From Chiloscyllium plagiosum (lineage: Eukaryota), in NCBI RefSeq assembly GCF_004010195.1, contig NC_057757.1:8590300-8654299 (forward strand): a stretch of DNA of 64,000 nt, given 5' to 3'. Made by a program: the position numbers and the translations under genes. The notes under the pieces are model-generated. The model did not search any database and had not been told where the DNA came from. It was given only the letters and a program-made list of their open reading frames with translations. Positions 23,373-59,638 of the stretch are shown in pieces (position 1 is the first letter of the stretch; the number at the start of each line of letters is the position of its first letter).

Positions 23373-25952
23373 ATGTCTCTTAGTTTTATGCCCAAGCTGA
23401 AGATTCTGTGGGCGATCAGTGATATACAGAGAATTTACTATGCGATCTTAGCTGCTGTTGGTGTCCCGGGTAAGTTACACTTTGTGAATGATATTTCAAA
23501 AAGTGGAATGTAATCATATGTGTTATCTTAATTTTCATGCCACTTTGTTTTTGATCTTCCTGGTGTTTTCACAATGACCAGACACCAATAAGAATTCAAT
23601 TTTTCCATGATAATTCATTAACATGTATCATTTGTGAGGCAAATAAATGCTCTCTCTATCAATTTGTCACTTCCTTTTTTTCTTTCTTCCTTTCTTCCTT
23701 CCTTTCTTTCATTCTTTCTTTCCTCCTTTCCTTTTTCTTCCTGCTTTTCTTTGCTCCTGTCTCAGTATATTTCATGCTGTTTTTCTCTTTGCTTCTTTCA
23801 AAATTGCCATTGAAATGGTTTCCTCTAGGAATGGGGCTAAAGAAAAAATAATGAGCAATTCATAAGATGTACCCATGACCGACTGGAATGGATCAAAACA
23901 TCGAAGACTCTGAATGGCTCGTTTCTGTTCCAACATTTCTCTCTTGTTAGAAAATGCGGCTCCAATTTACAAAGTTACTCCTTTTATATTTGCTGAAAAG
24001 CATTTATTTTCTTTTCGTCATGTTTCACTGATCCATGTTTTGTGGCTAAACTCAACACAATTCATCTTTCATTTAGCTACTTAGGAAGCTCACAGAAAAC
24101 CAAGTATTGAAACAATAATTTAAACTTTATTCAGATCTTTCAAGTAAGCAGGTATAAGGCACGTGACCTAACTTCACCCTTACCTGATTAATGGTGAGAT
24201 CTGTCCAGGATTTCAATCAACCGTGGTCTGTCTCTGGACATGTCCAGGATTGTCCAGAGTTGGTCTTCAAAAGTCTTCGGTTGAGCTGTTCTGCTGTTGG
24301 ATCCTTATACAATTTTCTTTCTTTCAAGTTTGTGAAATGACATTAGTGATGATACAGCAGATTTTTTTGATCCTCAGCATTGAGTATATTTTTGGAGGCC
24401 TCAAGACTGCAGCTTGCCTTCTCACCATACATAACTCCGTTGTTTCAGGTTACATTAAAGGTTTGCTTTCCTGCAATTAACCCCTTCACAACATTACTGC
24501 TGAGTGCAGGTCTGAATTGCCCAGTTGTCATGACTGTAGACCATCAAGCAAATGTTATGTCCTCTGACTAAGGGAACACGTTGTTTATGTAACTCCTTCC
24601 CAGGGATGGCCAATGCACATGTTGTTGTAACTGCTATTATTGGTTTCTCATTGTCCTTTTCATCTCAAGAAACAATCTTTTCGGGGATCATCGCTGCTTC
24701 TCTGTGTGTGATATGTTATTCTTTGTGATTCATTCAATCCATGAACATTTATGAAAGTGATGAATTTTACATTGGCACACATGGCTTTGTGCCTTTTTGT
24801 TTGGCTGCACAGTTATCAGTGCCTTTGACTGCAGTTTTTGGAATCCTTTCTGGATGGAATATTAAATAGCAAATTTGTGATAAAGTTTCAGTTTGGTACA
24901 AAAACATGGGCTACCCGTTAACAATGAATTTTAGTATTATACTTCAAATAAAGCAAATTTTTAAAATATCTTCATTATATCTGAGGTATACATTATTAAA
25001 TTTGTTCTCTTCTTTCCAATTAACGTGATTGCAATGATGATCCTGGTTCAGGGGAAGTGTGGCCTTTCCAAATGTGTCACTCATTACCTGGTGGTTATGG
25101 CAGTGGCGGATCAGCTGGTCATTATCTTCGATCTGATACTACGACAAATTCCGATCACATATCGGGGGGAGTTCCTGTTTATGAATTTTGTACGCAGTTG
25201 CAACATCCATGCTGTTCTGCTTTATGTTTCCACAAACTGCTCTGTCTGGTTCACGGTCACGTTCATCTTAGATCGGTTTGTGGCAATCTGTTGCCAAAAG
25301 CTGAGAAGTAAACATTGTACCAAGAAAACAGCGGGTGTCGTTTTAGGAATAGTGACTGTACTAAGTTGTTTGAAAAACATTTTATGGTGTTTTATGTACT
25401 TAATCGATATTGACTTTCTAATAGTCCATGGTTTGTAGAGTACATCTAAATGTAAGTTTTTCAATTGTCTGGCCATTGTTGAATTGATGCATTACATAAT
25501 AACACCATTTATTCCATTTATTTTGATTGTATTGTTAAATAAAGTGACAGTCAGAAATATTATATTAGCCAACAGAGCTCGCAGGAGCCTCCAGGCTCAG
25601 ATGACTGGAGACAGTGCTAGTGACCAGAGATGGGGAGTCGAAGGAAATCCATGATTCTGTTATTTATTAAATGTGGTAATTTCATCACGTTATAGGTGGT
25701 GTTCATTGTTTGTTCTATATTGAAACTATTTCATTACTTGGGATATCCAGTTCCTCTGCCAACATTTTAAGAGAGATTGGCCTCATGCTCCAGCACCTGA
25801 GTTACTGCACAAACACCTTTATTTATGCAGTTACCCAGAGGAAATTCAGAGAAGAGTTGACGAATGGAATAATGTATCCCTTCACAAAGTTGGTCAAATT
25901 AATTTGCCCAAACCTCAAGCCAACATTCAACATTAATACAGCATTTTATTAG
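23373..25952 (+). pseudogene. GPR139/GPR142-like GPCR pseudogene 1 (exon 1 23373-23469; exon 2 from 25020)
   Basis: Exon 1 MSLSFMPKLKILWAISDIQRIYYAILAAVGVP|GTAAGT; acceptor reads AA (25018-25019) instead of AG; exon 2 has CGLSKCVTHYLVVMAVAD, ILDRFVAICC and CTNTFIYAVTQRKFREEL, broken by frameshifts. Confidence 0.88.
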
Positions 25953-26420
25953 ATTCTATGTTCTGTTAGATTATTTATTCAATGATCTTTTAGAGCAATT
26001 TGAAGTCATGGCCCTTACCAGGATCAGTGTTGTGATCCGGACTGTTCCTGTTTTACCAAATGATTTAAACATTATTGTACTAGGGTGATAAGTAAGTTGG
26101 CAGATGAGACAATAATTGGTGGGGTGGTGAATAGTGAGGAGGAGAACTTTACATGACAGGAGTACATTTCTTCATTCAGAAGATGGACAACCTGTGGTAT
26201 TCTATCCCACTGAAGACGGTAGGGGCTGGGTCACTGAGAACATTTGAGGAACAGATGGATAAATGTGATTTAATGGCATCAAGATATATAGAGTGAAAGC
26301 GGGAATATGGCATTGAGGGAGAGGATCAGGCAAGATCATATTGAATGGCAGATCAAGTTCGAAGGGCTGAGTGGCCTACTCCTATCATGGTCTATGTTTG
26401 AGACAAAACTAAGCGAAGCT

Positions 26421-27304
26421 TGCTATAACACAGCAGTGAATCCTCTGTTAATTAAATCAAATACCCAGAAAACTTCACCTCGCCTCATAATTTGTTAAAT
26501 GTAAATGACAGAGAACTCCCCAAATTCCACCAATTAAAGAAAATATCATCAATTTATTTTTCAACTGTTAAAGTTGAACATTAAACAATACCTATTCACA
26601 CATGTAAGACCCCATTCCTCTTAACTGCGTATTATCTGTCACCAATCTATAATACTATCCAAATAAAACAGTTAGTAAAATTACATTAACTTCACTTCAA
26701 AACCTTACAACAGGTTTTAGCTTTGATGTCTGTCTTCCCTTTTACTGTGAATATGTTTCATATGAAAAGGCACCTTTACTAGAGAATATTTCCTAATTTC
26801 TTGGATCTGTGTTGATGCCAGTTGCTCTGTCCGATTTTCAAAATGCCTGCCTTTTTCATATTCCCAACATCGGATCATTTCATTGGTTTGAACTTGGCAA
26901 TGTGAATATGTTTCATATGAAAAGGCACCTTTACTAGAGAATATTTCCTAATTTCTTGGATCTGTGTTGATGCCAGTTGCTCTGTCCGATTTTCAAAATG
27001 CCTGCCTTTTTCATATTCCCAACATCGGATCATTTCATTGGTTTGAACTTGGCAAAACAATAAGGTCAATCGACTGCATTTTAGAATCTTGGGCCATAAT
27101 TTGATCTGGTTGTTTAAATTTGAATTGTTGTCATAACAGCAACCAACGCAGGAATACATTTCATAGCCAAATGTTATATATTTTCAATTTTCCTGTACAC
27201 TCTGAGAGTGCTACTTCATCATCACAGGTGCTAGTCAGCTCTTAGTTCAGAATAGCATTCATTCTCTCTTAAAGATACAATACGTGTCTTCAACTTCTTA
27301 ACCA
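26421..27304. mobile_element. Possible solo LTR (also 19319-20049)
   Basis: Non-coding block bounded by TGCTATAAC...TCATAACCA-like ends between CR1 fragments; no TSD recognised. Confidence 0.3.
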
Positions 27305-29559
27305 CCTATGATAAAGGAAAAGCCGTTCCCCTTTTTGATAGATGGAATAAAGGGGCTGAATGTTATTGAAACAGCGAGAGACTGCAGAAAGTTGCAGCAC
27401 AGAAGGATCCCGGAGTCAGCTGGCATGTTTTACAGAAACCGGAGCAGTCAAGTTCAATTGGTAATAGGGAAGGACAATGGGCAGGTGGCCTTTATTTCTG
27501 TGGGAAAGGAATGTAGAAAGAGGGAGGTCTTGTTAAAAAATTACAAGGCACTTGTCAGGATGTCCCTAGAATATTGTGAACAGTTTTGAACCCCATATCT
27601 CAGGAAAGATATCCTGGCATTGGAGGCAGTCCAGAAAAGTTTCACTTGGCTGATTCGCGGAATAGAGCGATTGTCCAATGAGGAGAGATTGGTGAGTTTG
27701 GGCCCGTGGTCAATGGATTTTAGACAAATCAGAGGCAACGTCATGGAAGAACCAAGATTCTTCGAGGTCTTGCCAGGTTGGAAATGGAGTGGTTATTTCC
27801 CCTCGTGGGCGAGTCCATGAACTGATGGCATCATCTCAGAATCACGGATTATACATTAAAGACAGAGATGAGGAGGAATTTCTTGTCTCCGAGGAGAGTG
27901 AGTGTATGACTCTTTACCACAGAGGGCTATCGATGTTAGGTCTGTAAGTATAGCCAAGGCTGATGGAGACAGATTTTTAATCAGAAAGAGAATTAAGAGT
28001 TATCGAGAAAATGCAGGAAAGTACAATTGAGGATGATCAGACAACCATGATTTTATTGAACGGTGGATCAGACTCAATGATCTAAAAGACTGACATCTGA
28101 TCTTCCTTCCTGTGATCCTGAATGTCCTGTTCCATCCTTCCTCACATTCCAGAATATTTCAAGGTGGCCTTTATTTCTGTGGGAAAGGAATGTAGAAAGA
28201 GGGCGGTCTTGTTAAAACAGTACAAGGCACTTGTCAGGATGTCCCTGGAATATTGTGAACAGTTTTGAACCCCATATCTCAGGAAAGATATCCTGGCATT
28301 GGAGGCAGTCCAGAAAAGTTTCACTTGGCTGATTCTTGGAATAGAGCGATTGTCCAATGAGGAGAGATTGATGAGTTTGGGCCCGTGGTCATTGGATTTT
28401 AGACAAATCAGAGGCAACGTCATGGAAGAACCAAGATTCTTCGAGGTCTTGCCAGGTTGGAAATGGAGAGGTTATTTCCCTTCGTGAGCGAGTCCATGAA
28501 TTGATGGCATCATCTCAGAATCACGGATTACACATTAAAGACAAAGATGAGGAGGAATTTCTTGTCTCAGAGGAGAGTGAGTGTGTATGACTCTTTACCA
28601 CAGAGGGCTGTCGATGTTAGGTCTGTAAGTATATCCAAGGCTGAGGGAGACAGATTTTTAATCAGAAAGAGAATTGAGAGTTATCGAGAAAATGCAGGAA
28701 AGTACAATTGAGGATGATCAGATCAACCATGATTTTATTGAACGGTGGATCAGACTCAATGATCCAAAAGGCTGACATCTGATCTTCCTTCTTGTGATCC
28801 TGAATGTCCTGTTCCATCCTTCCTCACATTCCAGAATATTTCAATGGCAGGAAGGTGAAGGAACCCAGTTAGTGCTGCCAGAAAACCCACAGAAAATGGT
28901 TTCCATTTCATCAATATCGATGGCAGATCATGTCGAACTGAAGTGGGAATAAATGTCTTCACTCAGAGACTGCTGACCCTGTGGAATTCTCCACCACATA
29001 AAGCTGTGGAGCTAATTCACTGAATATACTTAAGACATGAACAGATTGATTTCTGGATTCATGGTGTCAAGGGTCAACAGTGGGACCATGATATTGAGAT
29101 AAAGCATCCTTCATCACCATATTGAATGGTTGAGCAGGCTCAATGGGCCGAATAGCCTACTCTTGCCTGCATTGTCTGTTTCCCGATGCTCTTCGCTACA
29201 ACAATGAAATAGTTTTGTCAGCCGGGGGTTTACTTATCAACAGGACTGTTTCAGTCATACTGGATTACACTTCTGTAAAGTTTTAGTTAGCCCATCTACA
29301 CCAATCAATTCTAGCCTTTTCCTACAACTGATTCCAGGAGCATTGGCTAATGGTTACCTTTATTTATTATGCACTTTTGTCAAAAAGTCAGAATACATTT
29401 TCAGGAGTGCAGGTCACAGGAATGAATGAGAATCTCGGTATTTTCAGGCTCAAGGCCCACTTCAATGAGATATATTACACCAGGCACATCCCCTTTTATT
29501 CAATTCCCAAGCACAGATCGGAATCGCACTCGTGCACAGCTTTGTTTTGATTTGTTGTT

Positions 29560-30748
29560 AGGAATGTGAGTGTCTCTGGCAAGGCCAGCATTCATTGGCC
29601 CTCCCTAAATACCCAGAGGACACCTGAGACTCAGCCACATTCTGTTGGTTTGGTGTCACATCTAAGCCAGACCCGGTTATGATGGCCTTTCTTTCCCTAA
29701 AGGACACTAGTGAAGTGACCATTGGCTTCATGGTCATCATTCAACTCTTGATTCAAGATGGTTTTGTTTTAATTGATTTCAAATTCCACCATCTGCTTTG
29801 GCAGGGTTTGAACAATGACCCCAGAACAGGGTTGGGGAACCTTCAGCCTTAAGGCCACATGCGCCTTCTAGGCCATTGTGTTTGGCCTTTTGAATGAATC
29901 CAAATTTTGCAGAACAAATCTTTTACTTTTTATTATTTTTTTTTCATTCTTTATTATTTTTATTTCAATCTTCAAATGTATGTATTTAAAATTTCAGAGA
30001 GTAAAAGAGAATTCAATGAAATAATCCTCACAGACTGACCGCAACAATTAAAAAAATGGTTAGTCAATACACTTATTTATTACAGAATACAATTAAAGGT
30101 TCTCTGACTTTGAGAATCATGACATCACACTCAAATTAACATTTCAACCTCACCTAGTTGATGTCTCCAAGGCTCCTAAAGAACTACAGATGGAATTGAT
30201 TGAGCTCTCAGAAGATGACATTTTAAAGTCCTTATTTGACGCTAAGAAAGATCCAACTGAAATATGGAAAAATGCAACAGAATACACATGCCTTCAGCAA
30301 CATACACAAAAAATGCTTTCTTGCTTTTCAACCACTTATTGCTGTGAATCTACATTCTCCTACTTAACCAAAATCAAGATGCCCTTAAGGTCACAAATGA
30401 CGAATAGCCATCTGGAGGATCAGCTAAAACTGCAGACCTCCATGCTGCAAACAAATATTCAAATGCTTTCCTACAAAAAGCAGTCACAACAAAGTCATTA
30501 AAAGGTTAGTTAACTTTAGAATTAACTTTTTCATTTTTTTAGTTAGTTAGTACATAATAGATTTTTACAAAATAATGTGCATTTTGAAGAATATATAACT
30601 GAAGTTACTTTGATGCGGCCTTATTAGATCACAACTAACACAATGCGGTCTTCCAATGTGGAAAGGTTCCCCACGTCTGCCCCAGAACATTACCTGGGCC
30701 TCTGGTCACAATCCATTCATAATACCACTCGACCATTGCCTCCCCTTG
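29560..30748 (-). mobile_element. tRNA-headed SINE split by the hAT insertion
   Basis: The minus-strand head GGGAGGCAATGG...GTGGTATTAT...CCAGAGGCCCAGGTAATGTTCTGGGG continues across the hAT into ...GTTCAAACCCTGCCAAAGCAGATGGTGGAATTTGAA. Confidence 0.65.
29827..30679 (+). mobile_element. Non-autonomous hAT (Charlie-like) transposon, 853 bp, both ends present
   Basis: TIRs CAGGGTTGGGGAACCT and AGGTTCCCCACGTCTG; 8-bp TSD CCCCAGAA (29819-29826, 30680-30687); transposase C-terminal ORF 30190-30501. Confidence 0.92.
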
Positions 30749-30789
30749 ACACAAACGTATCAGGCTTCTTGAGTGGAACATCAAAAACA

Positions 30790-31150
30790 TTGTCGAGGTT
30801 TATAATGAAGGTCATCGATAGGGTGAAGAGCCAAGTTGCTTTCCCTGGGGTTGGGGAGTCCAAAGCTAGAGGGCATAGGGTTAAGGTGAGAGGGAAAAGA
30901 TTTAAAATTGACCTAAATGGTACGGATTATATGCAGAGAGTGGGTCACGTGTGGCGTGAGCTGCCCGATGAAGTGGTGGAGGCTGGTGCAATTAGAACAT
31001 TTAAAAGGCATCTGGATGGATATATGAATAGGAAGGATTCGAGGGATATGGGGTGTTGTTGGCAAATGGGATTAAGTCAGATTGGGATGTGAGGTCGGCG
31101 TGGATTAGTTGGACTGAAGGGGCTGTTTCCATGCTGAATGACAGTATACC
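30790..31150 (+). mobile_element. CR1 3' fragment
   Basis: FPGVGESKARGHRVKVRG...WRELP...FKRHLD plus tail. Confidence 0.75.
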
Positions 31151-32005: not shown

Positions 32006-32890
32006 ATGTCTCTTGATTTTTGTGATCAAGTTGAAGATCCTGTGGGCAGATCCTGATGTACAGATTATTTGCTACCTGGTCTTAGCTGTGTTGGATGCCC
32101 TGGATAAGTTACTCCTAAGGGAGGTTTATTCAAGAAGTGGAATTCTATTAAATGCATCATCTTTAAGTTTATGCCTTTTTAAAATAACTTACCTTACGTT
32201 ACTAAATGACGAGAGTTCAACAAGAATTTGTTTGTTCTATTGGAGTAAAAGGCCATTGATCACCTAAGGCAAAGAAAATCTTCCTCCCTCCCTCCCTTCC
32301 TTCCTTCCTTCCTTCCTTCCTTCCTTCCTTCCTTCCTTCCTTCCTTCCTTCCTTCCTTCCTTCCTTCCTTCCTTCCTTCCTTCCTTCCTTCCTTCCTTCC
32401 TTCCTTCCTTCCTTCCTTCCTTCCTTCCTTCCTTCCTTCCTTCCTTCCTTCCTTCCTTCCTTCCTTCCTTCCTTCCTTCCTTCCTTCCTTCCTTCCTTCC
32501 TTCCTTCCTTCCTTCCTTCCTTCCTTCCTTCCTTCCTTCCTTCCTTCCTTCCTTCCTTCCTTCCTTCCTTCCTTCCTTCCTTCCTTCCTTCCTTCCTTCC
32601 TTCCTTCCTTCCTTCCTTCCTTCCTTCCTTCCTTCCTTCCTTCCTTCCTTCCTTCCTTCCTTCCTTCCTTCCTTCCTTCCTTCCTTCCTTCCTTCCTTCC
32701 TTCCTTCCTTCCTTCCTTCCTTCCTTCCTTCCTTCCTTCCTTCCTTCCTTCCTTCTTTCCCTTCCTTTCCTTCCTTCCTTCCTTCCTTCCTTCCTATCGC
32801 TCTACCTACCGATCTATGTATCCATCCATCTATCTATCTACCGACTATCTATCTATCCATCCAACCATCCATCCATCCATCCATCCATCC

Positions 32891-32973
<83 letters not shown>

Positions 32974-34284
32974 NNNNNNNNNNNNNNNNNNNNNNNNNNN
33001 NNNNNNNNNNNNNNNNNNNNNNNNNNNNNNNNNNNNNNNNNNNNNNNNNNNNNNNNNNNNNNNNNNNNNNNNNNNNNNNNNNNNNNNNNNNNNNNNNNNN
33101 NNNNNNNNNNNNNNNNNNNNNNNNNNNNNNNNNNNNNNNNNNNNNNNNNNNNNNNNNNNNNNNNNNNNNNNNNNNNNNNNNNNNNNNNNNNNNNNNNNNN
33201 NNNNNNNNNNNNNNNNNNNNNNNNNNNNNNNNNNNNNNNNNNNNNNNNNNNNNNNNNNNNNNNNNNNNNNNNNNNNNNNNNNNNNNNNNNNNNNNNNNNN
33301 NNNNNNNNNNNNNNNNNNNNNNNNNNNNNNNNNNNNNNNNNNNNNNNNNNNNNNNGTAGTTTGTTGCAAAAATATTGAATGGACATTTGAGAATTAGTTT
33401 GATTATTTTACTGAAAAGACAGTGCATAATTATTTCTGCATTCTATCTGGTCAATAAATGATCTTATTTGTTCTCTTCTTTTAAGTTAACTTGATTGTAA
33501 TTATGATCCTGGCTCGGGGGAAGCCAGGATCCAAATGTGTCACTCATTACCTGGTGGCTATGGCAGCAGTGGATCTACTGGTCATTATCTTCGATGTGAT
33601 ACTACGACAATTTCCTATTACATATCAGATGGAGTTTCTCTTTGTGCATACTCTCCATGTCTGCAACTTCCATGGTGTTCTGCTTTATGCTGCCACAGAC
33701 TGCTCTGTCTGGTTCACGGTCACATAAGTCTTTGATCGGTTTTTGACCATATGTTGCCAAAAGCTGAGAAGTACACAGTGCAGCAAGTGGGTGTGGGTTT
33801 AGGAACATTGACTGTGCTGAGTTGCTTGAAGAACATTTTCTGGTATTTCTTGCAATGCAAGTGAGATTGGCTTTCCAATAGTACCTCAAAATGTAATTAA
33901 TTCAATTGTCTGGGGCGTTATTGAATTGATGCATTACATAATAATGCCATTCATTCCATTACAGAGCTCGCTGGAGACTTTGGGCTCAGACAACTGGGAA
34001 TAGTGCCAGAGACCCATAGATGGGAAGTCTGAGGAAATCCATGATTATCTTATTTATTATATCGTATTGTGGGTGGTGTTCATTACTTATTGTATATTGA
34101 AACGATTTGATTACTTGGGATATCCAGTTATTGTGCCTACATTTGTAAGGAGATTAGCTCCATGTTCCAGCTCCTGAGTTGCTACACAAACACCTTTATA
34201 CATGCAGTTACCCAGAGGAAATTCAAAGAGATGAAGAATGGAATAACGTATCCCTTCACAAAGTTGATCAAAGTAATTTGGTGA
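32006..34284 (+). pseudogene. GPR139/GPR142-like GPCR pseudogene 2 (exon 1 32006-32103; exon 2 33486-34284)
   Basis: Exon 1 is homologous to gene 1 but has a +1 T frameshift and donor ATAAGT in place of GT; exon 2 follows an AG, has SKCVTHYLVAMAAVDLL and TDCSVWFTVT, then a stop at 33725, deletions and frameshifts. Confidence 0.88.
32281..32973. repeat. (CCTT)n tract of ~500 bp followed by (ATCC)/(ATCT)n, running into a gap
   Basis: Directly visible. Confidence 0.97.
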
Positions 34285-35299
34285 TGTTATCTTACCAATA
34301 CTTGGAACACTAAATATATATTTTCTCAGGATTAAGATTCAGAACTGAGATCCCCGGCTTTATGTCGGCTTGATCCTTGCTGAAGAGTGCTGAGCAACAC
34401 CAGCTTTCAGTTCAGGAATAGTGTGGGAGTATGCTGTGCAAACTTCACAATAACACAGCATGGGTTCTCATTGTCCTTCCTCACTGTGGGTGCTTCTTAC
34501 AGAATTACTGAGGCCATTCAGCTGTTCTGTCTGGGCTGGCTCTGCGAAGGAACAATTCACTCAGTTCCGCTATATGATCTTCTCTCTGTAATCCTGCACA
34601 CTCTCGTAAGCTGTCTTCAACTTGACAGCACAGTAAGACATCTCATACATAATAAAACACTGAAACCATTATTATATTGCATGTAGCAATGAAGATAAGA
34701 ATCCTCCAGTCAGCATGTTAAGCTTCACAACCCAACTTGGCTATGACCTGATTAGTTTGGAATTTAACCCTGATTCTAACCAAAAGTGCCTGCCTCTGCA
34801 TCACTATGGTTCAAACCTTGTGCAGCTTTCAAGAGTTCTGCCAACAACGAACCTAGGAACTGAAATTTTATACAATTTTCTGTTTGTGGTATGATATTAC
34901 TGATGATCCTTTCAATTCTTTCATCGATAGTATTGACTAATCCTATGGGAAAATTAAGTCTGCAGTTTGCCTTCTTTGTTCCCTGTTACATTTCACATTG
35001 ACTTCTCTGTTTGAAGATACAGCTTTTGTGTGACTAATTCCTTAAATTCTTGTCTAACCATTTGTCCTTGTGGCATAAGGCGGCCAGTTATCAAGCGGGT
35101 GTTAAACAGGTTTGCTTATGTAACTTCTACTCCTGCTTTTCCCAGTTATGGAGGCATGCTTTCAATGCCTGTATAACAGCTGGTCTTTGTCCCTTCACAA
35201 TTTATTCCAGGCAGAGTTATTGCCACTTCTTTTAATCCATGAATAGTTATTGCAGTCCTGACGTTTACTCACCACATTCACCTTTGTAGCTGATAATCC

Positions 35300-38890: not shown

Positions 38891-38924
38891 AAAAATGAAT
38901 AAATTATGGGAGCCATTATCAATG

Positions 38925-39692: not shown

Positions 39693-42600
39693 ATGTCTCT
39701 CAGTTTTCTCACCAGATTGAAGATTTTATGGGCGCTTTATGATATACAAAGGATCTACTTCCCCATCTTGGCTGCTGCTGGTGTCCCCGGTATGTTTTGA
39801 ACTCAAGGTGGTACATTAGTCACCTCAAATTAACAGTTTGTGCTTTTGCTTTTGTTCTGTGTTGCACATTCCTTGACAAATTCAGGTTTCTCTCTTAAAA
39901 ATTGTGCCTCTCTTCAAAAATATTCTGCTGATTTTAAACTGATTTGTGACCACCCCACTTTGCAACATAGAAGTCTTTCATTTATTCCTCTCTCTCTCTT
40001 TATTTCTTTATCTCGCTTGTACTTTGTTCTTTCATTCTTTCTTTATGTTTTCTCTTTCTTTTCTGTTTTTGTTCTTTCCTTCTGCCTTTCCATCTTTCTT
40101 TCTTTTCTTACTCATTTCTTTCTTTATTTATTTCTTTTTCTTCCTTCCTTCTTTCTTCCTTCCTTTCTTTCTTCCTGCATTCTACCATTAATTCTATTTT
40201 CTATCAGATTAATTTATCCCCTTCGATCTGATTAGTTTCCCACCCTGTACCATTAAACCTCCTTCTGGATCCCTCCAACGTTGGAAACATCCTTCCTGCA
40301 TCTTCCCTACCGAATAATGTTCGGATTTTGTAGGTTTCTAGGAGACCTCCCCATCATTCTACTAACTTCTATTGAATATAGTTGTAATCAATCCAATCTC
40401 TCCCTATACTCAATGATTCCAAATCAGTACTCAGCCTGGTAAACTTTCTCTGCATGCTCAATCTTGAATATTATTTCAAGAAATGGTTCATGATATACAC
40501 TAACAGGTTTCCTGCAGGAAAGTGTTGATGCACTTAATATTTATTTATTGCACTGCAAATCATGTAATTCTTCTTTCAGTTATATTTGATAAGTGTGTCT
40601 ACGTTTATAAATGTCATACCATGAGTGCAATGTGTTCGTGTGGAGCAGATGTGTCTTTAGCTCCTGAACTCACCAAACTGGGTCTGCACTCACATTAAGG
40701 CTCAGGTCAAATAAATAATATAGCCGAACATAGAGCAGGAATAAATTATTGCAGATGCTGGAATCTGAACTGAAAACATCAAATGCTGGAAATCACAGTA
40801 GGTCAGGCAGTGTCCATGGGAAATGAGTGAGCTAATGTTTCACATCCAGATGACTCTTCATCAGAGTTGATGTGGAACGGAGACGAGGCAGCATTTCTGC
40901 AATGGTCGGGGTGGGGGGGGGGGGGGTTGGTGGGGAGGGGGAAGGTGGTGGNNNNNNNNNNNNNNNNNNNNNNNNNNNNNNNNNNNNNNNNNNNNNNNNN
41001 NNNNNNNNNNNNNNNNNNNNNNNNNNNNNNNNNNNNNNNNNNNNNNNNNNNNNNNNNNNNNNNNNNNNNNNNNNNNNNNNNNNNNNNNNNNNNNNNNNNN
41101 NNNNNNNNNNNNNNNNNNNNNNNNNNNNNNNNNNNNNNNNNNNNNNNNNNNNNNNNNNNNNNNNNNNNNNNNNNNNNNNNNNNNNNNNNNNNNNNNNNNN
41201 NNNNNNNNNNNNNNNNNNNNNNNNNNNNNNNNNNNNNNNNNNNNNNNNNNNNNNNNNNNNNNNNNNNNNNNNNNNNNNNNNNNNNNNNNNNNNNNNNNNN
41301 NNNNNNNNNNNNNNNNNNNNNNNNNNNNNNNNNNNNNNNNNNNNNNNNNNNNNNNNNNNNNNNNNNNNNNNNNNNNNNNNNNNNNNNNNNNNNNNNNNNN
41401 NNNNNNNNNNNNNNNNNNNNNNNNNNNNNNNNNNNNNNNNNNNNNNNNNNNNNNNNNNNNNNNNNNNNNNNNNNNNNNNNNNNNNNNNNNNNNNNNNNNN
41501 NNNNNNNNNNNNNNNNNNNNNNNNNNNNNNNNNNNNNNNNNNNNNNNNNNNNNNNNNNNNNNNNNNNNNNNNNNNNNNNNNNNNNNNNNNNNNNNNNNNN
41601 NNNCTCGGCATGCTGCGGTGTTCCAGTGAATCACAGCGCAAACTGGAGGAACAACATCTCATCATCAGACCAAGCACTTTAGTCTTCTGGACTTTATAAC
41701 ACCTTCAGATTGGGAACCCACTCCTATTCCTTCCCTTTATTTCAGCGATACTTGTTACATTCTCTATCACTATGACCTCTCTTCCGTCCCCCACCTAGTG
41801 CAGTGAGCCTGTTGTTCTGCCGCTCTGCCATTCTGATGACTTAATCTGCACTGTCAGCACCCTTTCTCCATCAGTTCTCCATCCCCCCACACTATGGCAT
41901 AAATGTTGCCCCCTCGACACTTCACGTCAGCTTTGATGAAGAGTCCTCTAGACTTGAAATCTTAGCTTATCCTCTCTCCATGGATGCTGTGGATATGTGA
42001 CCAGGACGTTGTGTTGAAATTATCAGCTGCGCGAAGGTCAGGGAAGGTGATTGGAATCCTCTTTGCCCCCACTTTCCATCACATTAGCCTCTGTATTCAA
42101 GGGATCATCTTCCACCATTAGTTGTCTTCAGGTCAGATTCCAGCATCTGCAATAATCTATTCCTGTTGTATACTGTGCTATGTTATGTATTTGGTAATAT
42201 TTTGTTGATTACCTTGATGCCAAAACCAAAATTCCTGACACTATGTTAAAGCTAAAAAGAACAAGTTTCAATCATTGGTTGCAAAAACAATGCTGCACTG
42301 TCCCATCTAATTTCAAGTTAAGTTGCAGGATATTAATTGTCCCTCTTCAGAAAGCTACTCTGTTGGTTCAGTGGAAACATATTCAACTTTTCTTATTCGC
42401 AGCAACTTTTAATTGGAAAGGTTATACAAATATCTGTCAGTTGCTAGTGAATAATTCCCCTGTTCGTCTCTTATTTACAGTGAACATAGTCACAATTGTG
42501 ATCTTGTTTCGCAGAAAATGTGGTCTCTCGAACTGTGTCACTTCGTACCTGCTTGCCATGGCAACAGCAGATCTTCTGGTTGTTATCATTGACCTGATCC

Positions 42601-43285
42601 TGCGCCAGATTCCAATTGTCTATCGGGAGGAATTTAATTTTGTGAGGACCGTTCCTTTGTGTAATATCCATGCAATCTTGTTGTATGTTGTCACTGACTG
42701 CTCTGTCTGGTTCACTGTCGCTTTCACATTTGATCGTTGCATGGCCATTTGTTGGCAGAAGCTGAAATCAAAATATTGCATTGAGAAGACGGCCATTGTG
42801 GTCGTTGGAACTGTGACTGTGCTGAGTTGTTTGAAGAACACTTTCTGGTATTTTCTGTATACAAGTGATTATTGGCTTTCCAATAATCCCTGGTTTTGCC
42901 GTGTGTCTTTCAATGTTTCTCGTTCACTGGTCTGGGCTGTCACTGAATTAATGCATTATATTTTGACGCCATTCGTTCCCTTTCTCTTGATTTTAGTGTT
43001 CAATGCATTGACAGTCCAGCACATTATCACAGCCAGCAGAGCTCGCAGGAGGCTGCAGTGTCAGGGTCAAGGTGAGAACCCCAAAGATCAGGAGATGGAA
43101 AACCGAAGGAAATCCATGATTTTACTGTTTGTTATCTCGGGAAATTTCATGTTGCTATGGGCCGTCTTCATGATCTCTTCCATATGGAGACGCTTGGATT
43201 ACTTGGGGTATCCTATTTCTCTGCCTACCTTTGTCCCAGAAATTGGCTCAACATTGCAACTCCTGAGTTGCTGCACAAACACCTT
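39693..43285 (+). CDS. GPR139/GPR142-like class A GPCR gene 3 (exon 1 39693-39789; exon 2 42481->43285; 3' end in gap)
   Basis: Exon 1 MSLSFLTRLKILWALYDIQRIYFPILAAAGVP+G|GTATGT; phase-1 intron ending TTTACAG; uninterrupted frame with TM1-TM7 (AMATADLL, TFDRCMAIC, LLSCCTNT). Confidence 0.88.
40740..42160. mobile_element. Penelope-like fragment with inverted ends in the intron of GPCR gene 3
   Basis: TTGCAGATGCTGGAATCTGA (40749) is inverted relative to TCAGATTCCAGCATCTGCAA (42133); RKLEEQHLI C-terminus at ~41640; hammerhead-like CTGATGAAGAGTC...GAAAC on minus ~40835-40865 and a degenerate plus copy at ~41932-41960. Confidence 0.72.
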
Positions 43286-43785
43286 NNNNNNNNNNNNNNN
43301 NNNNNNNNNNNNNNNNNNNNNNNNNNNNNNNNNNNNNNNNNNNNNNNNNNNNNNNNNNNNNNNNNNNNNNNNNNNNNNNNNNNNNNNNNNNNNNNNNNNN
43401 NNNNNNNNNNNNNNNNNNNNNNNNNNNNNNNNNNNNNNNNNNNNNNNNNNNNNNNNNNNNNNNNNNNNNNNNNNNNNNNNNNNNNNNNNNNNNNNNNNNN
43501 NNNNNNNNNNNNNNNNNNNNNNNNNNNNNNNNNNNNNNNNNNNNNNNNNNNNNNNNNNNNNNNNNNNNNNNNNNNNNNNNNNNNNNNNNNNNNNNNNNNN
43601 NNNNNNNNNNNNNNNNNNNNNNNNNNNNNNNNNNNNNNNNNNNNNNNNNNNNNNNNNNNNNNNNNNNNNNNNNNNNNNNNNNNNNNNNNNNNNNNNNNNN
43701 NNNNNNNNNNNNNNNNNNNNNNNNNNNNNNNNNNNNNNNNNNNNNNNNNNNNNNNNNNNNNNNNNNNNNNNNNNNNNNNNNNNNN

Positions 43786-46700
43786 GCGTGAGTTTCAGTC
43801 GCAGTGTTCTGTAGATCGATTTTCGAAGGTGACCTTGTACAGTGTGATTTTCTATAGCGATATTGTATTGTGTGATTTTCTGTGTTAGTGTGCGTTATCT
43901 GAATTTTCTATAGCAATCTTGTACAATGTGATTTTCTGTATCGGTGTCTTGTAGCCCGATTATATATAGCGACCTTGTACAGTGTGATTTTCTGTAGCAG
44001 TGTTCTGTATCTCAATTTTCGTTTTCGACCTTGTACAACCTGTTGTTCTGTATCGGTGTTCAGTAGTGTAATTTTCTAATGCGACCTTATACAATGTGAT
44101 TTTCGGTAAAAGTGTTCAATAGCTTGATTTTCTACTGCAACCTCGTGCAGTGTGATTTTCTATAGTGGTGTCCTGTATCATGACTTTCTGTAGTGACCGT
44201 GTACAGTGTGATTTTCTGCAACAGTGTTCTGTATCTCCATGTTCTATACCAACCTCATAAAATGAGACTTTTCTGTATCGGTGTTTTTTAGCTCGATTTT
44301 CTGTAGCGCCCTTTGACAGTGTGATTTTCTGTAGATGTGTTCTGTGGATCGATTTTCTAAGGCGACCTTGTACAATGTGATTTTGTATAGCGATGTTGTA
44401 CAGTGTGGTTTTCTGTATCAGTGTTCTGTATCTCAATTTTCTGCAGCGACATTGTAAAGTGTGATTTTCGGTTGCAGTGTTCTGTAGACCAATTTTCTAT
44501 GGCGACCTTGTACAGTGTGATATTCTGTAGCGTGTTCTGTAGCTTAATTTTCTGTAGCGACCTTGTACAATGTGATTTTCTGTAGCAGTGTTCTGTAGCT
44601 TAATTTTCTAAAGCGACCTTATGCAACGTGATTTTCTGTAAAAGTGTTCTATAGTTCGATTTTCTATTGCGATCTTGTACAATGTGATTTTTCTGTAACG
44701 GTGTTCTCTGGCTCGATTTTTTATAGTGACCTTTGCCATGTGACATTCTGTAGTGGTTTTCTGTAGCTCAACTTTGTATAGCGACCTTGTACAGTGCGAT
44801 TTTCTGTAGTGCTTTCCTGTGGCTCAGTTTACTTTTGCGACCTTTTACAATGTGATTTTCCGTCGTGATTTTCTTTGGCTGGATTTTCGATAGCGATGTT
44901 GTACAGTGTGACTTTCTGTAATGGTATTCTGTAGCTCAGTTTTCTGTTGCGATATTGTACAATGTGATTTTCCGTCGTGGTTTTCTGTGGTTCCATTTCC
45001 TATAGCGACGTTGTACTGTTCTGTAACGGTGTTCTGTGTCTCGATTTTCTATCGTGACCTTGTACAGTGTGAATTTCTGTCACGCCGTTCTGTCAATCAA
45101 TTGTCTAAAGCGACCTTATACAATTTTCTGTAGCGACACTGGACAGTGTGATTTTCTGTAATGGTGTTCTGTAGCTCGATTTTCTGTAGCGACATTTTGC
45201 AGTACAATGTATCTGTAGTGTTTTTCTGTGTCTCGATTTTCTTTAACGACCTGTACAATGTGATTTTCTATCGCGGTGTTGTGTAGCTCGATTTCCAATA
45301 GCGACCTTGTTCAGTGTGATTTTCCATAACGGTGTTCTGTCCCTCCATTTTCTGTATTGATCCTGTACAGTGTGATTTTCTATAGCCGTGTTCTGTATCT
45401 CGATTTTCTATAATGACATTGTACGGTGTGATTTTCTGTACCAGTATTCTGTATCTCAATTTTCTATAACAACCTTGTACAATATGACTTTGTGTTGGTC
45501 CATAGCTCGATTTTCTGTAGCGTCCTTGTACAGTGTGATTTTCTGTAGCAGTGTTCTGTAGATCGATTTTCTATGGCGACCTTGTACAGTGTGATTTTCT
45601 AGAGTGAAATTGCATAATTTGATTTTCTGTATCAGTGTTCTGTATCTCAATTTTCTACTGCAATCTTGTACAATGTGACTTTCTGTATCGGTGTCCTGTA
45701 GCTCGATTTTCTATAGTGACCTTGTACAGTGTGATTTTCTGTAGCAGTGTTCTGTATCTCAATTTTCTTTTGTAACCTTGTAAAACGCGATTTTCTGTAT
45801 CGGAGTTCTGTAGCCCAATTTTCTAATGCGACCTTATACAATGTTATTTTCAGTAAAAGTGTTCTATAGCTTGTTTTTTCTACAGCGACCTCGTGCAATG
45901 TGTTTTTCTGCAGTAGTTTCCTGTAACTTGATTTTTTCTATAGCGACGTGTACAGTATGATTTTCTGCAACAGTATTCTGTACTTCAATTTTCTATCCCA
46001 ACCTTGTACAATATAGCTTTCTGTATCGGTGTTCTATATCTCGATTTTCTGTAGCGCCCTTGTACAGTGTGATTTTCTGTAGCAGTGTTCTGTGGATCAA
46101 TTTTCTCAGGCGACCTTGTACAATGTGATTTTGTATAGCGATATAGCACCGTTCAGTTTTCTGCATCATGTTCTGTCTCTCAATTTTCCGTAGAAAACTT
46201 GTACAGTGTGATTTTCTGTATCAGTGTTCTGTAGCTCAATTTTTCTGTAGCGACCTTGTAAAGTGTGATGTTCTGGTAGCAGTGTTCTGTAGACCAATTT
46301 TCTATGGCGACCTTGTACAGTGTGATATTCTGTAGCGTGTTCTGTAGCTTGATTTTCCGTTGCGACCTTGTACAATGTGATTTTTCTGTAATTGTGTTCT
46401 CTGGCTCGATATTTTTTGGTGACCTTTGCCATGTGATTTTTCTGTAGTGGTTTTCTGTAGCTCAATTTTGTATAGCGACCTTGTACAGTGCGATTTTCTG
46501 GAATGCTTTCCTGTGGCTCAGTTTACTGTTGCGACCTTTTACAATGTGATTTTCTGTCCTGTTCTGTTGCTCGACTTTCTATAGCGACCTTGTAGAGCGT
46601 GCTGTTCCTTAACAGTGTTCTGTCCCTCCATTTTCTACATTGACATTACACAGCGCTATTTTCTGTAGCAGTGTTCTGTACATCGACTTTCTACACCGAC

Positions 46701-48118
46701 ATTGTACATTGTGATTTTCTGTACCAATATTCTGTATCTCACTTTTCTATAACAACCTTGTACAATATGACTTTTTGTGTCGTTGTTCTCTAGATCCATT
46801 TTCTGTGGCGACCTTCTACAGTGTGATTTTCTGCACCAGTGCATTGTAGCTCGATTTTCTGTAGCGATATTGTACAGTGTGAGTTCCTGTATCAGTGTTT
46901 TGTATTTCAATTTTCTATGGCAACCTTGTACAGTGTGATTTTCAGTATCAGTGTGCTGTAGCTCGAATTTCTATAGCGACGTTTTACAATGTGATTATCT
47001 GTATCAGTGTTCTGTATCTCAGTTTTCTATAGCAACCTTGCACAATATAATTTTCTGTATCAGTGCGCTGCAGCTAGATTTTCTATAGCGACCTTGTACA
47101 ATGTGATTTTCTGTCACGGTTTTCTGTAGCTCGATTTTCTATGGCGACCTTGTATAGTGAGATTTTCTGTTGTAGTATTCTGTAGCTTCATTTTCTAAAG
47201 TGACCTCATACAGTGTGATTTTCTGTAACGGTGTTCTGCTGCTCGATTTTGCTTGTTCCGTGTGGATTTCTATACTGCTGTTCTGGAGCTCGATTTTCTA
47301 TAGCGACCTTGTACAGTGTGATTTTCTGTAGCAGTATTGTGTAGATCGATTTTCTATAGCGACCTTATACAGTGTGATTTTCTGTAGCAGTATTGTGTAG
47401 ATCGACTTTCTATGGCGAACTTGTACAATGTGATTTTCTATAGCGATATTGTATAGTTTGATTTTCTATACCAGCATTCTGTATCTCAGTTTCCTATAGC
47501 AACCTTATAGAATGTGACTTTCTGTATCGATGTTCTGTAGCTCGACTTTCTATAGCGTACTATAGAAAGTGTAATTTTCTGTAGCAGTGTTCTGTATCTC
47601 AAGCTCTTTTTGCCACGTTTTACAGTGTAACTTTCTGTATCGGTGTTCTGTAGCTTAAATTTCTATCGTGACCTTATACAATGTGATTTTCTGTAAAAGT
47701 GTTCGATTGCTCGATTTTCTATAGCGACCTTGTGCTGTGTGATTTTCTGTAGCGGTGTTCTGTAGGTTGGTTTTCTAAAGCGACCATGTACAATGTGATT
47801 TTGTGTAGCAGTGTTCGGTCACTCAGTTTTCTTTTGCGACTTTGTACAGTGTGATTTTCTGTAGTGGTTTTCTGTATCTCGACTTTCTATAGCGATCTTG
47901 TGCAGTGTGATTTTTCTGTAACAGTTTTCAGTGACTCGATTTTCTATTGTGACCTTTACCTTGTGACTTTCTGTCGTGGTTTTCTGTAGCACAATTTTCC
48001 ATAGCGACCTTGTACTGTGTGATTTTCTATAGTAGTGTTCTGTCGCTCGACTACTATTGCGACCTTGAATAGTCTGAAGTTCTGTAGCGGTGTTCTGTAG
48101 GTCGATTTTCTGTAGCAC
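43786..48118. repeat. Tandem satellite, 56-bp unit made of two related 28-mers
   Basis: Alternating GATTTTCTATAGCGACCTTGTACAGTGT and GATTTTCTGTAGCAGTGTTCTGTAGCTC (e.g. starts at 47292, 47320, 47348). Confidence 0.95.
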
Positions 48119-55727: not shown

Positions 55728-56910
55728 TATAGAACATAGAACAGTACAGCACAGAACAGGCCCTTCAGCCCACGATGTTGTGCCGACCATTGATCCTCAT
55801 GTATGCACCCTCAAATTTCTGTGACCATATGCATGTCCAGCAGTCTCTTAAATGTCCCCAATGACTTTGCTTCCACAACTGCTGTTGGCAATGCATTCCA
55901 TGCTCTCACAACTCTCCATGTAAAGAACCCGCCTCTGACATCCCCTCTATACTTTCCTCCAACCAGCTAAAAACTATGACCCCTCGTGTTAGCCATTTCT
56001 GCCCTGGGAAATAGTCTCCGGCTATCGACTCTATCTATGCCTCTCATTATTTTGTATACCTCAATTAGGTCCCCTCTCGTCCTCCTTTTCTCCAATGAAA
56101 AAAGTCCAAGTTTAGTCAACCTCTCTTCATAAGGTAAGCCTTCCAGTCTAGGCATCATCCTGGTAAACCTCCTCTGAATCCTCTCCAAAGCATCCACATC
56201 TTTCTTATAACAGGGCGACCAGAACTGGACCCAGTATTCCAAGTGTGGTCTAACGAAAGTTTTATAGAGCTGCAACAAGATCTCACGACTCTTAAACTCA
56301 GTCCCCGTTAATGACAGCCAAAACACCATATGTTTTCTTAACAACCCTGTCCACTTGGGTGGCCATTTTAAGGGATCTATGTACCTGCACCCCAAGATCC
56401 CTCTGTCCTTCCACACTGCCAAGAATCCAATCCTTAAGCCTGTACTCAGCTTTCAAATTCGACTTTCCAAAACGCATCACCTCGCATTTATCCAGGTTGA
56501 ACTCCATCTGCCACCTCTCAGCCCATCTCTGCATCTGGTCAATGTCCCGCTGCAGCCTACAACAGCCCTCTATACTGTCAACGCCACCTCCAACCTTTGT
56601 GTCATCTGCAAACTTGCTGACCCATCCTTCAATCCCCTCACCCAAGTCATTAATAAAAATTACAAACAGTAGAGACCCAAGGACAGAGCCCTGTGGAACA
56701 CCACTCATCACTGACTTCCAGGCTGAATATTTTCCTTCTACTACCACTCGCTGTCTTCTGTTGGCCAGCCAATTCTGTATCCAGACAGCTAAGTTCCCCT
56801 GTATCCCATTCCTCCTGACCTTCTGAATGAGCCTACCATGGGGAACCTTATCAAATGCCTTGCTGAAGTCCATATACACTATATCCACAGCTCTACTCTC
56901 ATCAACTTTT
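55728..56910 (-). mobile_element. Relatively young 5'-truncated CR1 LINE
   Basis: Long ORFs with YMDFSKAFDKVPH, SGVPQGSVLG, KFADDTK and RPHLEYWVQFWSP; tail ending in (TTCTATG)n-like repeats. Confidence 0.92.
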
Positions 56911-57404
56911 CTATTATATTTCCATTACCAGTCTTCAAACATTAAAGTGTCTCCATATAATGACGATTATAATTTAGATTTTATTAAACTTAACGTGAGT
57001 CAAAAAGATTGTATCATAACCTTGCCTATTGATGCATTTACCCCCAGTGATGCAAGCTTTAGATGTTCCCAGTTCGTTTTTATATGAAGCATGAGTTTCT
57101 AAACGTTTATAAGCATTTGTATTTTTTCTAAACACAAACGTTTCTGAACCGACTGCAAGACACATAAAAGCGATATAAATCTTCAACTGATTTTTGAACT
57201 TATGGTATATTCATCCCACTGGCAGGGGGAAATAAATGTGATGACGTGTTTTCTATAAAACCCATTGGTTTGTCTCAAAGTAAGACACTTGGAAAACCAA
57301 TTTCGGTGATATTTGTGAAGCTTACGGGACTACAATTCTCAAAAGAGTGGGAGTAACATAACTGCTTCTGCTGTGTCATAACCCCAAGGGAGGTTCTCCA
57401 CTAT

Positions 57405-57410
57405 TATAAA
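57405..57410 (+). promoter_or_regulatory. Candidate TATA box of GPCR gene 4
   Basis: TATAAA about 65 nt upstream of the ATG at 57472. Confidence 0.5.
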
Positions 57411-57471
57411 TCAATGCCTTCTCTCAGTTACTTATCCCACAGAGTCGGTTGGAATCTTGTGTCCAGATACA

Positions 57472-59638
57472 ATGAGAGCTCCATTCACTTTCTACCCCTT
57501 TCTCGAGCTACCTCCCATTGTACAGATCATAATGGTTTACTATCCAACAATAGCGGCCATTGCCATTCCAGGTTAGTGATTATAACCAGTTTCTAAAGCT
57601 AAAGTGTCTTTGTTTAACTCTGTTACTGACTTTATGTAAATTAGCGAAACGAGAGCTCTAACTTTGATTGAAAGACTAACTACCACAGATAGCGATTATT
57701 TGTTGCTTTCATGTGTTAAAATTGATTGTGTTGTTGAAATCGTTGCAATCTACAAAAACGGCGCCAGCTATTTTAAATTACAGGCAAAACGCCCGTGAAA
57801 GCGCTGTGGAAACATACCAGGTCAGGCCACATAACTGGAGAGAGAATCAGTGCACATTTCACGTCTAGTGTGACTTCTTCAGAGCTTAGAATAATGCAGC
57901 TGTTCTCTTCATTTAATGTCAGCCAAGCTGACACAAGATTCAGAAAGGTGGCACAGTCACAATTGGCTGTATAGCTTCATTCTGTGCTGTAGTAATCCTG
58001 TTATGCTGCCAAAGGTGATTGAAATTTTTTTTTTGCACATTATCAACCTAATTTCTCTTCATTCGTACATAAACCATTTTTGATGTTCATCTGCAAAAAG
58101 ACTCTACACCCTCTAAATTTAAAACCCAATATCGTTTTCTCATAATTCAGAGAATATATGACATTCACGTTGTCCCTGTTGAGGTGAGTAGAACTGAAAT
58201 GCGACACATTGCATTCCATCTACCCTGTCCTTCCTTTATCTCCTGATGCAATTTCTTTGATTTTCCTGCACCCACAAACACTATGCATTTCTATGATCAC
58301 CAACTCGAAAACTGAATCAGCAGCAAACTTGTTTGGGAAGCATTCAATGACCTTAACTATACTATCAACATAGATTATAAATGTAAATGTTCCAAGTATG
58401 ATGTTTACACCATACAGCTCAGTGCAACTTAATAAAATGAAAAAAAGTTATTCCAGCTACTTTGTTTCTTTATTTATTAATCAATATTTTGAGCCTATGT
58501 TACCATAACAACACATAAATCGTCACTGTTGATTGTTCTATGTTGCTCATGTTTTTAGGGAAGGTAATCTTCGATCTTTACCTGTCTAGCTGACACGTGA
58601 CTCCAGACACACAGCAATGTGTTTGCCTCTGAGCTAACTTTTGTGCAATTAGAAATGGATAGTCAATGCTGGCTTTGGCCAGTGATGCTCATATCCATTG
58701 AATGAGCATTCGATAAAGTGTCCTTCTCTTTTACAGCCAACTTGATGACAATCGTGATTCTCTCACGGGGAAATTGTGGTCTCTCTAACTGTGTGACTCG
58801 ATATTTGGTGGCCATGGCAGTGGCAGATCTACTAGTCATTATCAATTATGTGATCCTGACACGAATTAAGGACTCTTATTTCCCGACTAATTTCCTGTTC
58901 ATGACTCCTTTCTGTTCACTGCAATCTGCCCTGAATCATATTTCCACCGACATTTCAGTCTGGCTCACAGTTGCATTTACTTTTGATCGCTTTATTGCTA
59001 TTTGTTGCCACAAACTCAAGACTAAGTATTGCACCGAAAGAACAGCAACCACCGTTATAGGAACTGTCTGTCCAATCTTCTGTTTAAAGAACATACCATG
59101 GTATTTTGCATATGAAGCCTACAATATAACTGGCTTGATCCCATGGGGTTGTAGTAGAAAACTTGAGTATTACACTGTAGCTGCTTGGATAGCATTCAAT
59201 TGGATTCACCGGTGGTTGACACCATTGATTCCAATATTTTTGATATTTCTCTTCAACGCTTTTACTGTAGGACACATTTTGGCAGCGAGTAAAACCCGGA
59301 GGAGACTCAGAGCCAGTCGGAATGATAGGGATCAAAGTGATCCCAAGATACAGAGCAGGAGAAAGTCTGTTATCTTACTCTTTGCCATATCCAGCTACTT
59401 TGTTCTTCTCTGGGTGTCATATGTTGTTTATTTTGTGTTACTCCGCGTTACAACACATTATTACACAACAGGATACAGTGATCCAATGTATATCGCAGAC
59501 CAAACCAGCCACATGCTCCTCCTTTTGAGTTGCTGCACCAACACGTGTATTTATGTGATGACCCAAAGTAAATTTCGAGAGCAGCTAACCAAGCTGGTGA
59601 AATATCCAGTGAAGATTATCTGTAAATCTATTAAATAA
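57472..59638 (+). CDS. GPR139/GPR142-like class A GPCR gene 4, complete, 333 aa (exon 1 57472-57571; exon 2 58737-59638)
   Basis: Exon 1 MRAPFTFYPFLELPPIVQIIMVYYPTIAAIAIP+G|GTTAGT; acceptor TTTTACAG; the phase-1 join gives AIPANL; AMAVADLL, TFDRFIAICC, ECL2 Cys and SCCTNTCIY...KFREQL; no stops. Confidence 0.92.
58550..58710 (+). mobile_element. SINE 3' part ending just upstream of the exon 2 acceptor
   Basis: TTTAGGGAAGG...GTGACTCCAGAC.CACAGCAATGTG...AATGCTGGC..GCCAGTGATGCTCATATCC; reverse complement of the 21625/29560 SINE family. Confidence 0.6.

Follow-up and report, generated by a model that had tools for sequence, protein, structure and literature searches.

GPR139, a class A G protein-coupled receptor (GPCR), is encoded by two coding exons, shares 70% identity between human and zebrafish and has a tryptophan/phenylalanine pocket that includes F109, H187, W241, N271, R244 and E108 (PMC7318219), with E108, R244 and N271 being confirmed in a second report (PMC12775434). 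It has been suggested that GPR139 and GPR142 are orthologous to the MIP peptide receptor of invertebrates (PMC7270403), and the catshark possesses both, at 81.3% and 58.7% identity to mouse, respectively, in the supplementary orthologue table of PMC13200729. Three extra groups beside GPR139/142 were described in coelacanth, gar and fishes by Rinne et al. 2019 ('GPR210A/B'; PMC6504862), in the accessible portion of which sharks are unmentioned, and PMC11886862 mentions neither GPR139, GPR142 nor sharks. In silico analysis of a 64,000-nucleotide stretch of the Chiloscyllium plagiosum genome (contig NC_057757.1, positions 8,590,300 to 8,654,299; the whole of this stretch is referred to as the window) identified a tandem cluster of four receptor loci, designated genes 1 to 4. 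The sequence comparisons presented here place these genes in a very large receptor family, found in sharks, rays and chimaeras, which, in our judgement, has about an even chance of working as a chemical sensor repertoire. The gene annotation of this family is already public under an automatic name; what the present analysis itself addressed is its separation from the true GPR139 and GPR142, an amphibian/sturgeon sister lineage and a contrast in pocket variability. The literature searched, which did not extend to most subscription journals, yielded no description of this expansion.

Comparison of the two long open frames of the cluster with the window by tblastn established that there are four receptor loci and no more, all on the + strand, with first exons of 97, 98, 97 and 100 nucleotides (nt) that each terminate in the first transmembrane helix (TM1), a phase-1 intron positioned at P-x-N in TM1, and a single large exon 2, which is the architecture of four same-strand paralogues that the initial annotation had described. 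Both open frames match the Pfam model 7tm_1 (E values of 9e-19 and 1.2e-19; 68 and 71 bits, the cut-off being 30.5), which alone passes, no OR, TAAR, V1R or TAS2R Pfam model being matched by either frame. The class A positions N1.50, D2.50, D/E-R3.50, W6.48, N7.49 and Y7.53 are present, and an AlphaFold2 model of gene 4 exon 2 is a helical bundle with a mean predicted local distance difference test score of 87.6. On this sequence and model evidence genes 1 to 4 are judged not to be chance resemblances to class A GPCRs.

The earlier description of two dead and two open genes stands for three of the four. Genes 1 and 2 are dead, in the case of gene 1 because of its altered acceptor, deletions and stops (Table 1), and gene 4 is complete, encoding a class A GPCR of 334 residues across a GT-AG intron of 1,165 nt. 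Gene 3, however, with an intron of 2,691 nt that contains a 652-N gap, is open across 300 codons until a 500-N gap that begins in TM7, just past N7.49-T7.50, and since the last ~30 codons are missing it cannot be called complete. Annotated relatives, P0008 and P0009 among them, have a counterpart of gene 4 exon 1, and exon 2 of gene 4 is covered by contigs of run X1 (DNA-like), where the sole listed coding difference, at 59,293, is synonymous. At the nucleotide level genes 1 and 2 are 81% identical to each other, 68-70% identical to gene 3 and 53-55% identical to gene 4, and genes 3 and 4 are identical at 45% of residues. Near TM7, the alignment of genes 1 and 2 is better explained by two separate 1-nt deletions than by a frameshift common to both, and the latter was discarded.

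Genes 1, 3 and 4 carry the CGLSxCVTxYL motif that was noted for the cluster, gene 2 has it in decayed form, and a looser form is found in 149 of 174 relatives. The TM7 sequence NTxIY cannot be read in gene 3 beyond N7.49-T7.50, and loss of the NPxxY proline is not special to the cluster, as GPR139 reads NFFLY and single-copy relatives also lack NPxxY; similarly, the very short N-termini are present but are shared by single-copy relatives, in which N1.50 lies at about residue 26-28. The reported divergence of the extracellular loops (ECLs) between genes 3 and 4 holds for ECL1, ECL2 and ECL3 (4/12, 5/24 and 1/9 identical residues) as compared to the intracellular loops ICL1 and ICL2 (7/9 and 6/10), but ICL3 is equally divergent (3/15). 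Across 101 aligned sequences the family core is near-invariant at D-R3.50, W6.48, N7.49, Y7.53 and the TM3 and ECL2 cysteines, and ICL1 and the start of TM6 are also conserved; C3.25 is found in 95% of the family, P6.50 is kept by 13%, and D-x-E-x-x-x-R[RK] before TM6 occurs in 167 of 174 family relatives and in 21 of 21 amphibian/sturgeon orthologues.

The family is a very large one, gene 4 matching 2,151 of 2,909 candidate clusters (90% identity clustering, E <= 0.001). The best 120 of these 2,151 clusters, to which organism names apply, are all elasmobranch (Heterodontus 41, Heptranchias 34, Pristiophorus 17, Rhinoraja 10, others 18), and most of them carry the automatic RefSeq name 'probable G-protein coupled receptor 139'. 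The 41 proteins of Heterodontus (horn shark) have a median mutual identity of 64%. The best match of gene 4 is a Stegostoma protein at 85% identity, a relative in Heterodontus is 73% identical to it, and gene 3 falls in a separate old subfamily common to Heptranchias and Pristiophorus. Among the best 150 representatives (50% clustering), which reach down to 67 bits, a family member is the best match for 136. Twenty divergent family representatives comprise 18 clusters with a named cartilaginous-fish protein, three of them from Callorhinchus, and two without a name; as the three Callorhinchus members sit at different positions in the tree, growth of the family probably began before the chimaera/elasmobranch split. 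Contig depth in run X1 is 9-15 over most of gene 4 and 266-1,753 over TM2-TM3 (20- to 100-fold above single-copy), and loose contig ends at TM2-TM3 translate to paralogous TM2 motifs, which together show many further copies in Chiloscyllium plagiosum, albeit depth is no copy number. The ratio of non-synonymous to synonymous substitution (dN/dS, Nei-Gojobori), computed on DNA of the four window genes, is 0.24 for gene 3 against gene 1, 0.32 against gene 2 and 0.23 against gene 4 (dS being saturated for the last pair), as compared to 0.80 between the dead genes 1 and 2, so that purifying selection on the open copies is supported. The lineage-specific expansion with birth-and-death proposed in the initial annotation is thus likewise supported, by the sequence comparisons, for a large tandem family, two of the four genes being dead and 41 of the best 120 matches coming from one shark. 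Several of the public family models P0012, P0018, P0019, P0021 and P0003-P0007 seem to be fused across adjacent copies or to have a wrong first exon, and catalogue counts of the family are therefore unreliable.

Sequence searches support GPR139 as the nearest characterised relative of the family: human GPR139 is the best PDB match of gene 4 as a single sequence (40.6 bits; next 36.5) and of the family profile (84.2 bits; next receptor 67.9), and it is also the best PDB match of P0260 and of two single-copy vertebrate types (70.4 bits for the type found in coelacanth). A PDB structure search with gene 4 did not single out GPR139, as entry 7vug ranked 7 among near-equal class A matches. Gene 4 is only ~23% identical to human GPR139, and its 40.6 bits to that receptor stand against 122-128 bits to the two other vertebrate paralogue types; full-length non-shark vertebrate rows in the best 150 representatives are those of a coelacanth (34%, 128 bits), a salamander (29%, 122 bits) and teleosts. 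Like GPR139 (PDB 7vug, 9m42) and GPR142, the shark genes are class A, have no proline at 7.50 and consist of two coding exons, the intron of GPR139 lying, as we assume, at the same TM1 codon, on which point the literature search found nothing. When six GPR139 pocket positions (E3x32, F3x33, H5x43, W6x48, R6x51 and N7x38) were read across the alignment to GPR139, genes 3 and 4 were seen to keep two, H at 5x43 and W6.48; no more than two are kept by 162 of 174 relatives, R6.51 occurs in 6 of 171 and E3.32 in none of 174. Gene 4 lacks E3.32, F3.33, R6.51 and N7x38, the family is mostly without P6.50, and GPR139 has an Asp at the TM3 position aligned to C3.25 of the family. Furthermore, GPR139 is one conserved gene, of which the catshark carries its own copy. 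As the catshark has separate true orthologues, the GPR139 score is low and E3.32 is missing throughout, the shark genes are not regarded as copies of GPR139 or GPR142, and the argument for a tryptophan or phenylalanine ligand fails to carry over to the family because the pocket residues are not kept.

The phylogenetic placement that had been called for was obtained from trees of 42 rows, which hold neither GPR139 nor GPR142 and are rooted on five rows, one named leech and four unnamed; representatives matching fewer than 235 residues of gene 4 were left out of these trees and of the 74-member set used below. The shark family and a gene of amphibians and sturgeon form one clade with support of 99/94 (LG+G4), or 95 by the SH-like approximate likelihood ratio test under a mixture model, and a grouping of the family with the coelacanth type, named after the tree was seen, is rejected by the approximately unbiased test (p 0.007). 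The amphibian gene would thus be either the sister of the family or nested within it. Of the 25 matches to the salamander protein (XP_069092602.1, P0230; RefSeq 'probable GPR139'), 20 are clusters of amphibians, each named species having one; a further match is a sturgeon protein at 46%, and the remaining four, at 32-33%, belong to the shark family. No amniote or teleost occurs among the 25. P0230 together with P0273-P0292 makes up these GPR139-related orphan proteins of amphibians and sturgeon, which are 66-74% identical across amphibians and ~29% identical to gene 4, and no study of this receptor turned up in the literature searched. It shares D-x-E-x-x-x-R[RK], C3.25 and the short N-terminus with the family, and differs from it in an invariant pocket (Y3.32, F3.33, Q5.42, K6.51, N7.39), in P6.50 and in being represented by one cluster per species.

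The coelacanth type (Latimeria XP_005988539.1, P0227) is 34% identical to gene 4 and also of the wider GPR139/142 group, although the topology test above rejects it as the family's sister. Among the best 120 of its 145 matches (P0227, P0303-P0420), its conservation extends from sharks to turtles and squamates, and no bird or mammal name occurs. It has its own orthologue, distinct from the family, in three sharks. This type probably corresponds to a 'GPR210' group described by Rinne et al., and the two single-copy types likely match those groups. Two coelacanth-type models are fused to or named after TMEM183A, which suggests that TMEM183A may be a neighbour of this gene.

The variability of the ligand pocket was compared by entropy, over 31 TM positions that we take to represent the pocket, in sequence sets of unequal depth that do not constitute independent samples. 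The pocket positions average 2.44 bits in 74 diverse family members as compared to 2.03 bits for 34 other outer-helix positions (p 0.024), with the inner helix halves at 0.99 bits. This order is reversed in 21 amphibian/sturgeon orthologues (pocket 0.15, other outer positions 0.58 bits) and in 120 orthologues of the coelacanth type (0.73 and 1.14 bits). In the family, pocket positions account for 14 of the 19 most variable TM positions, and 174 proteins display 144 distinct 10-residue pocket signatures. As the pocket is variable in the diverse family yet near invariant in the single-copy sister, these data fit a repertoire diversified for ligands.

We propose that one ancient GPR139-related gene likely gave rise to the family, that the ancestral lineage would persist as the one conserved gene of amphibians and sturgeon, and that expansion would have started before chimaeras and elasmobranchs diverged. 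Turnover by tandem duplication and loss may then have produced one signalling core with many pockets, putatively joining a common G-protein pathway to many ligands. Each copy is predicted to bind different small waterborne ligands in sensory epithelium, and judged from ancestry alone these may be of the amino-acid or short-peptide type. The family resembles the vertebrate chemoreceptors (OR, TAAR, V1R/ORA, V2R, T2R) in its tandem arrays, many pseudogenes, short N-terminus and variable pocket on a fixed core, although its ancestry is a different one and its sensory role is only predicted. The invertebrate expansions of FMRFamide- and MIP-receptor-like genes are from the same broad receptor neighbourhood and also grew in tandem, but they did so independently, with invertebrate rows lying outside the vertebrate group, where they were set as outgroup. 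Pfam Srw is found in 16-74% of the members of look-alike clusters, which is a lead only; nematode srw receptors are chemoreceptors. The receptor repertoires known from sharks are small, the catshark having only 8 OR-type genes, a handful of ORA, TAAR and TARL genes and 32 annotated V2Rs (PMC11979771, section 13), which favours environmental chemosensing, as does the similar expansion of related invertebrate receptor groups, for instance the about 450 tandem FMRFamide-receptor-like GPCRs of the snail Lymnaea (PMC11589774). The wider proposition, that cartilaginous fishes own an additional chemoreceptor family of hundreds of genes, older than the split of sharks and chimaeras and derived from a GPR139-related orphan, is plausible but put forward tentatively. 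If true, the family would outnumber all OR, TAAR, V1R and V2R genes together and would overturn the view of a small shark smell repertoire of V2Rs only; the smell receptors known from sharks reportedly number only a few dozen although the chemical sense of these animals is strong, and the family would be an immediate candidate for the repertoire that is missing. The ancestral ligand and tissue could be approached through the one sister gene conserved in frogs and salamanders.

A number of observations weigh against a chemosensory repertoire that grew from one ancestral gene. Support for the branch between the family and the amphibian gene is low (76/31), and the mixture-model tree does not recover it, as a consequence of which there may have been several ancestral copies. 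The pocket contrast is modest in the diverse set, entropy being no test of positive selection, and it is absent among the 116 closest matches (1.49 and 1.42 bits, p 0.78), a set that excludes the four fused double models P0012, P0018, P0019 and P0021. Immune and pain-sensing cells, too, have GPCR arrays with variable pockets. Gene 4 received 0 reads in the 2% and 6% of two runs that were searched, these being from one single-cell sample of unstated tissue. In the catshark, V2Rs are the main olfactory family (PMC11979771, section 13), and no GPCR is among the 50 most specific genes of a brain-plus-olfactory library, albeit this is a weak test for low-level genes (PMC11979771). With regard to C. 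plagiosum, run X5 contained seven partial reads, six in an intronic repeat and one over ~34 bases of exon 2 at 90-95% identity; neither an intron-spanning joint nor a gene 4 transcript was present in the reads and contigs of X5, X1 and X7, the last matching the intronic repeat only. The single-cell read sample neither shows nor excludes expression of gene 4.

The genomic pattern is no less compatible with sensing by immune cells or nerve endings, a serious rival to the chemosensory reading. According to this alternative, which we consider possible though on balance somewhat unlikely, the family would be an immune or barrier repertoire by which leukocytes, mast-like cells or sensory nerve endings detect microbial or damage peptides, comparable to the formyl-peptide and Mas-related receptors of mammals, and an immune sensor system would have gone unrecognised behind the automatic 'probable GPR139' label. 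Tandem growth, gene death and variable pockets would be expected of it just the same, the ancestry of the family lies among peptide-type receptors, and the spleen-specific expression of catshark or1 and or4 (PMC11979771, section 13) indicates that sensor-type receptors are in use in that organ. As a point to the contrary, the names GPR139, GP139, GPR142 and 'coupled receptor 139' are missing from four supplementary files of an immune single-cell atlas of cartilaginous and bony fish (PMC11372145) and from 12 of the 19 supplementary files of a thymus study (PMC12286861), a weak argument since other gene identifiers may have been used; the eight supplementary files of PMC13188829 gave no match.

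It is unlikely, in our view, that the family instead receives the animal's own diversified peptides or reproductive signals in gonad, gut endocrine cells or brain, or is scattered over tissues without a single role. The nearest solved relatives are GPR139 and peptide receptors, and catshark V2R and OR paralogues have often shifted to testis, rectal gland and stomach (PMC11979771, section 13), both of which accord with such a function, but the pocket of a receptor for a fixed endogenous ligand is retained, as is that of both single-copy sister types, and a species with dozens of divergent copies would require a ligand family to match, which was neither found nor searched for. That the cluster reflects mainly neutral duplication in repeat-rich regions, with a few working copies and most drifting to death, is more improbable again: the death of half of the four genes, the near-neutral dN/dS of genes 1 and 2, the recent copying or conversion of the block upstream of both and the lack of a gene 4 transcript in shallow single-cell reads are in keeping with it, whereas the close relatives of gene 4 in Stegostoma and Heterodontus, the old shared subfamily of gene 3, the low dN/dS of the gene 3 pairs and the near-invariant core motifs argue against it. 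Finally, a set of duplicated GPR139 or GPR142 genes still sensing tryptophan and phenylalanine is scarcely credible, for the best PDB matches by sequence and profile and the two coding exons are outweighed by the separate catshark orthologues and the loss of pocket residues.

The coordinates of the receptor exons and of adjoining features are compiled in Table 1.

Table 1. Receptor exons and adjoining features, in positions of the window.
Feature	Position	Strand	Description
Gene 1 upstream block	19319..22724	+	95-99% identical to gene 2 upstream block
Gene 1 (pseudogene) exon 1	23373..23469	+	97 nt, ATG to TM1, GT donor
Gene 1 exon 2	25020..25930 (end approximate)	+	AG acceptor gone (AA), five 1-nt deletions relative to gene 3, two in-frame stops
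Gene 2 upstream block, second copy	26429..30840	+	genes 1 and 2 lie within a tandem unit of ~8 kb
Gene 2 (pseudogene) exon 1	32006..32103	+	98 nt, 1-nt insertion/frameshift, donor AT not GT
Gene 2 exon 2	33486..34285	+	deletions of 3, 7, 17, 53, 13 and 1 nt; three stops
Gene 3 exon 1	39693..39789	+	97 nt, GT donor
Gene 3 exon 2	42481..43285	+	frame open from TM1 to TM7, then assembly gap
500-N assembly gap	43286..43785	.	conceals the 3' end of gene 3
Gene 4 exon 1	57472..57571	+	100 nt, GT donor; N-terminus matched by P0005, P0008 and P0009
Gene 4 exon 2	58737..59638	+	902 nt including stop

Genes 1 and 2 are each preceded by a block, and the two blocks are far more alike than the genes themselves, a likeness that may stem from a recent gene conversion, from mosaic unequal crossing-over or, the first block being bordered by an N gap, from an assembly artefact. 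The gene 2 upstream block has inner tandem copies of 155 bp and about 680 bp. Each duplicated block contains an open fragment (21,930-22,376 and 30,097-30,498) that presumably resembles a hAT-type transposase, and 17-bp inverted arms at 22,545-22,561 and 29,827-29,843 may be the terminal repeats of a hAT-like element. Immediately after the gap that truncates gene 3, a degenerate satellite of 4.3 kb with a 56-bp (2 x 28) unit extends over 43,818-48,116. Genes 1, 2 and 3 share a non-coding element ~90-130 bp 5' of the ATG that ends in a TATA-like motif and represents a candidate core promoter of their subfamily. A match to YCCCNNGGGR, which we take to be the Olf-1/EBF site of olfactory receptor promoters and B-cell genes, is located at 57,382-57,391, ~80 bp 5' of the gene 4 ATG and directly before a TATA-like box; it is one of two matches in the window as compared to 2.67 expected, with none before genes 1-3, and as a post hoc observation it is weak.

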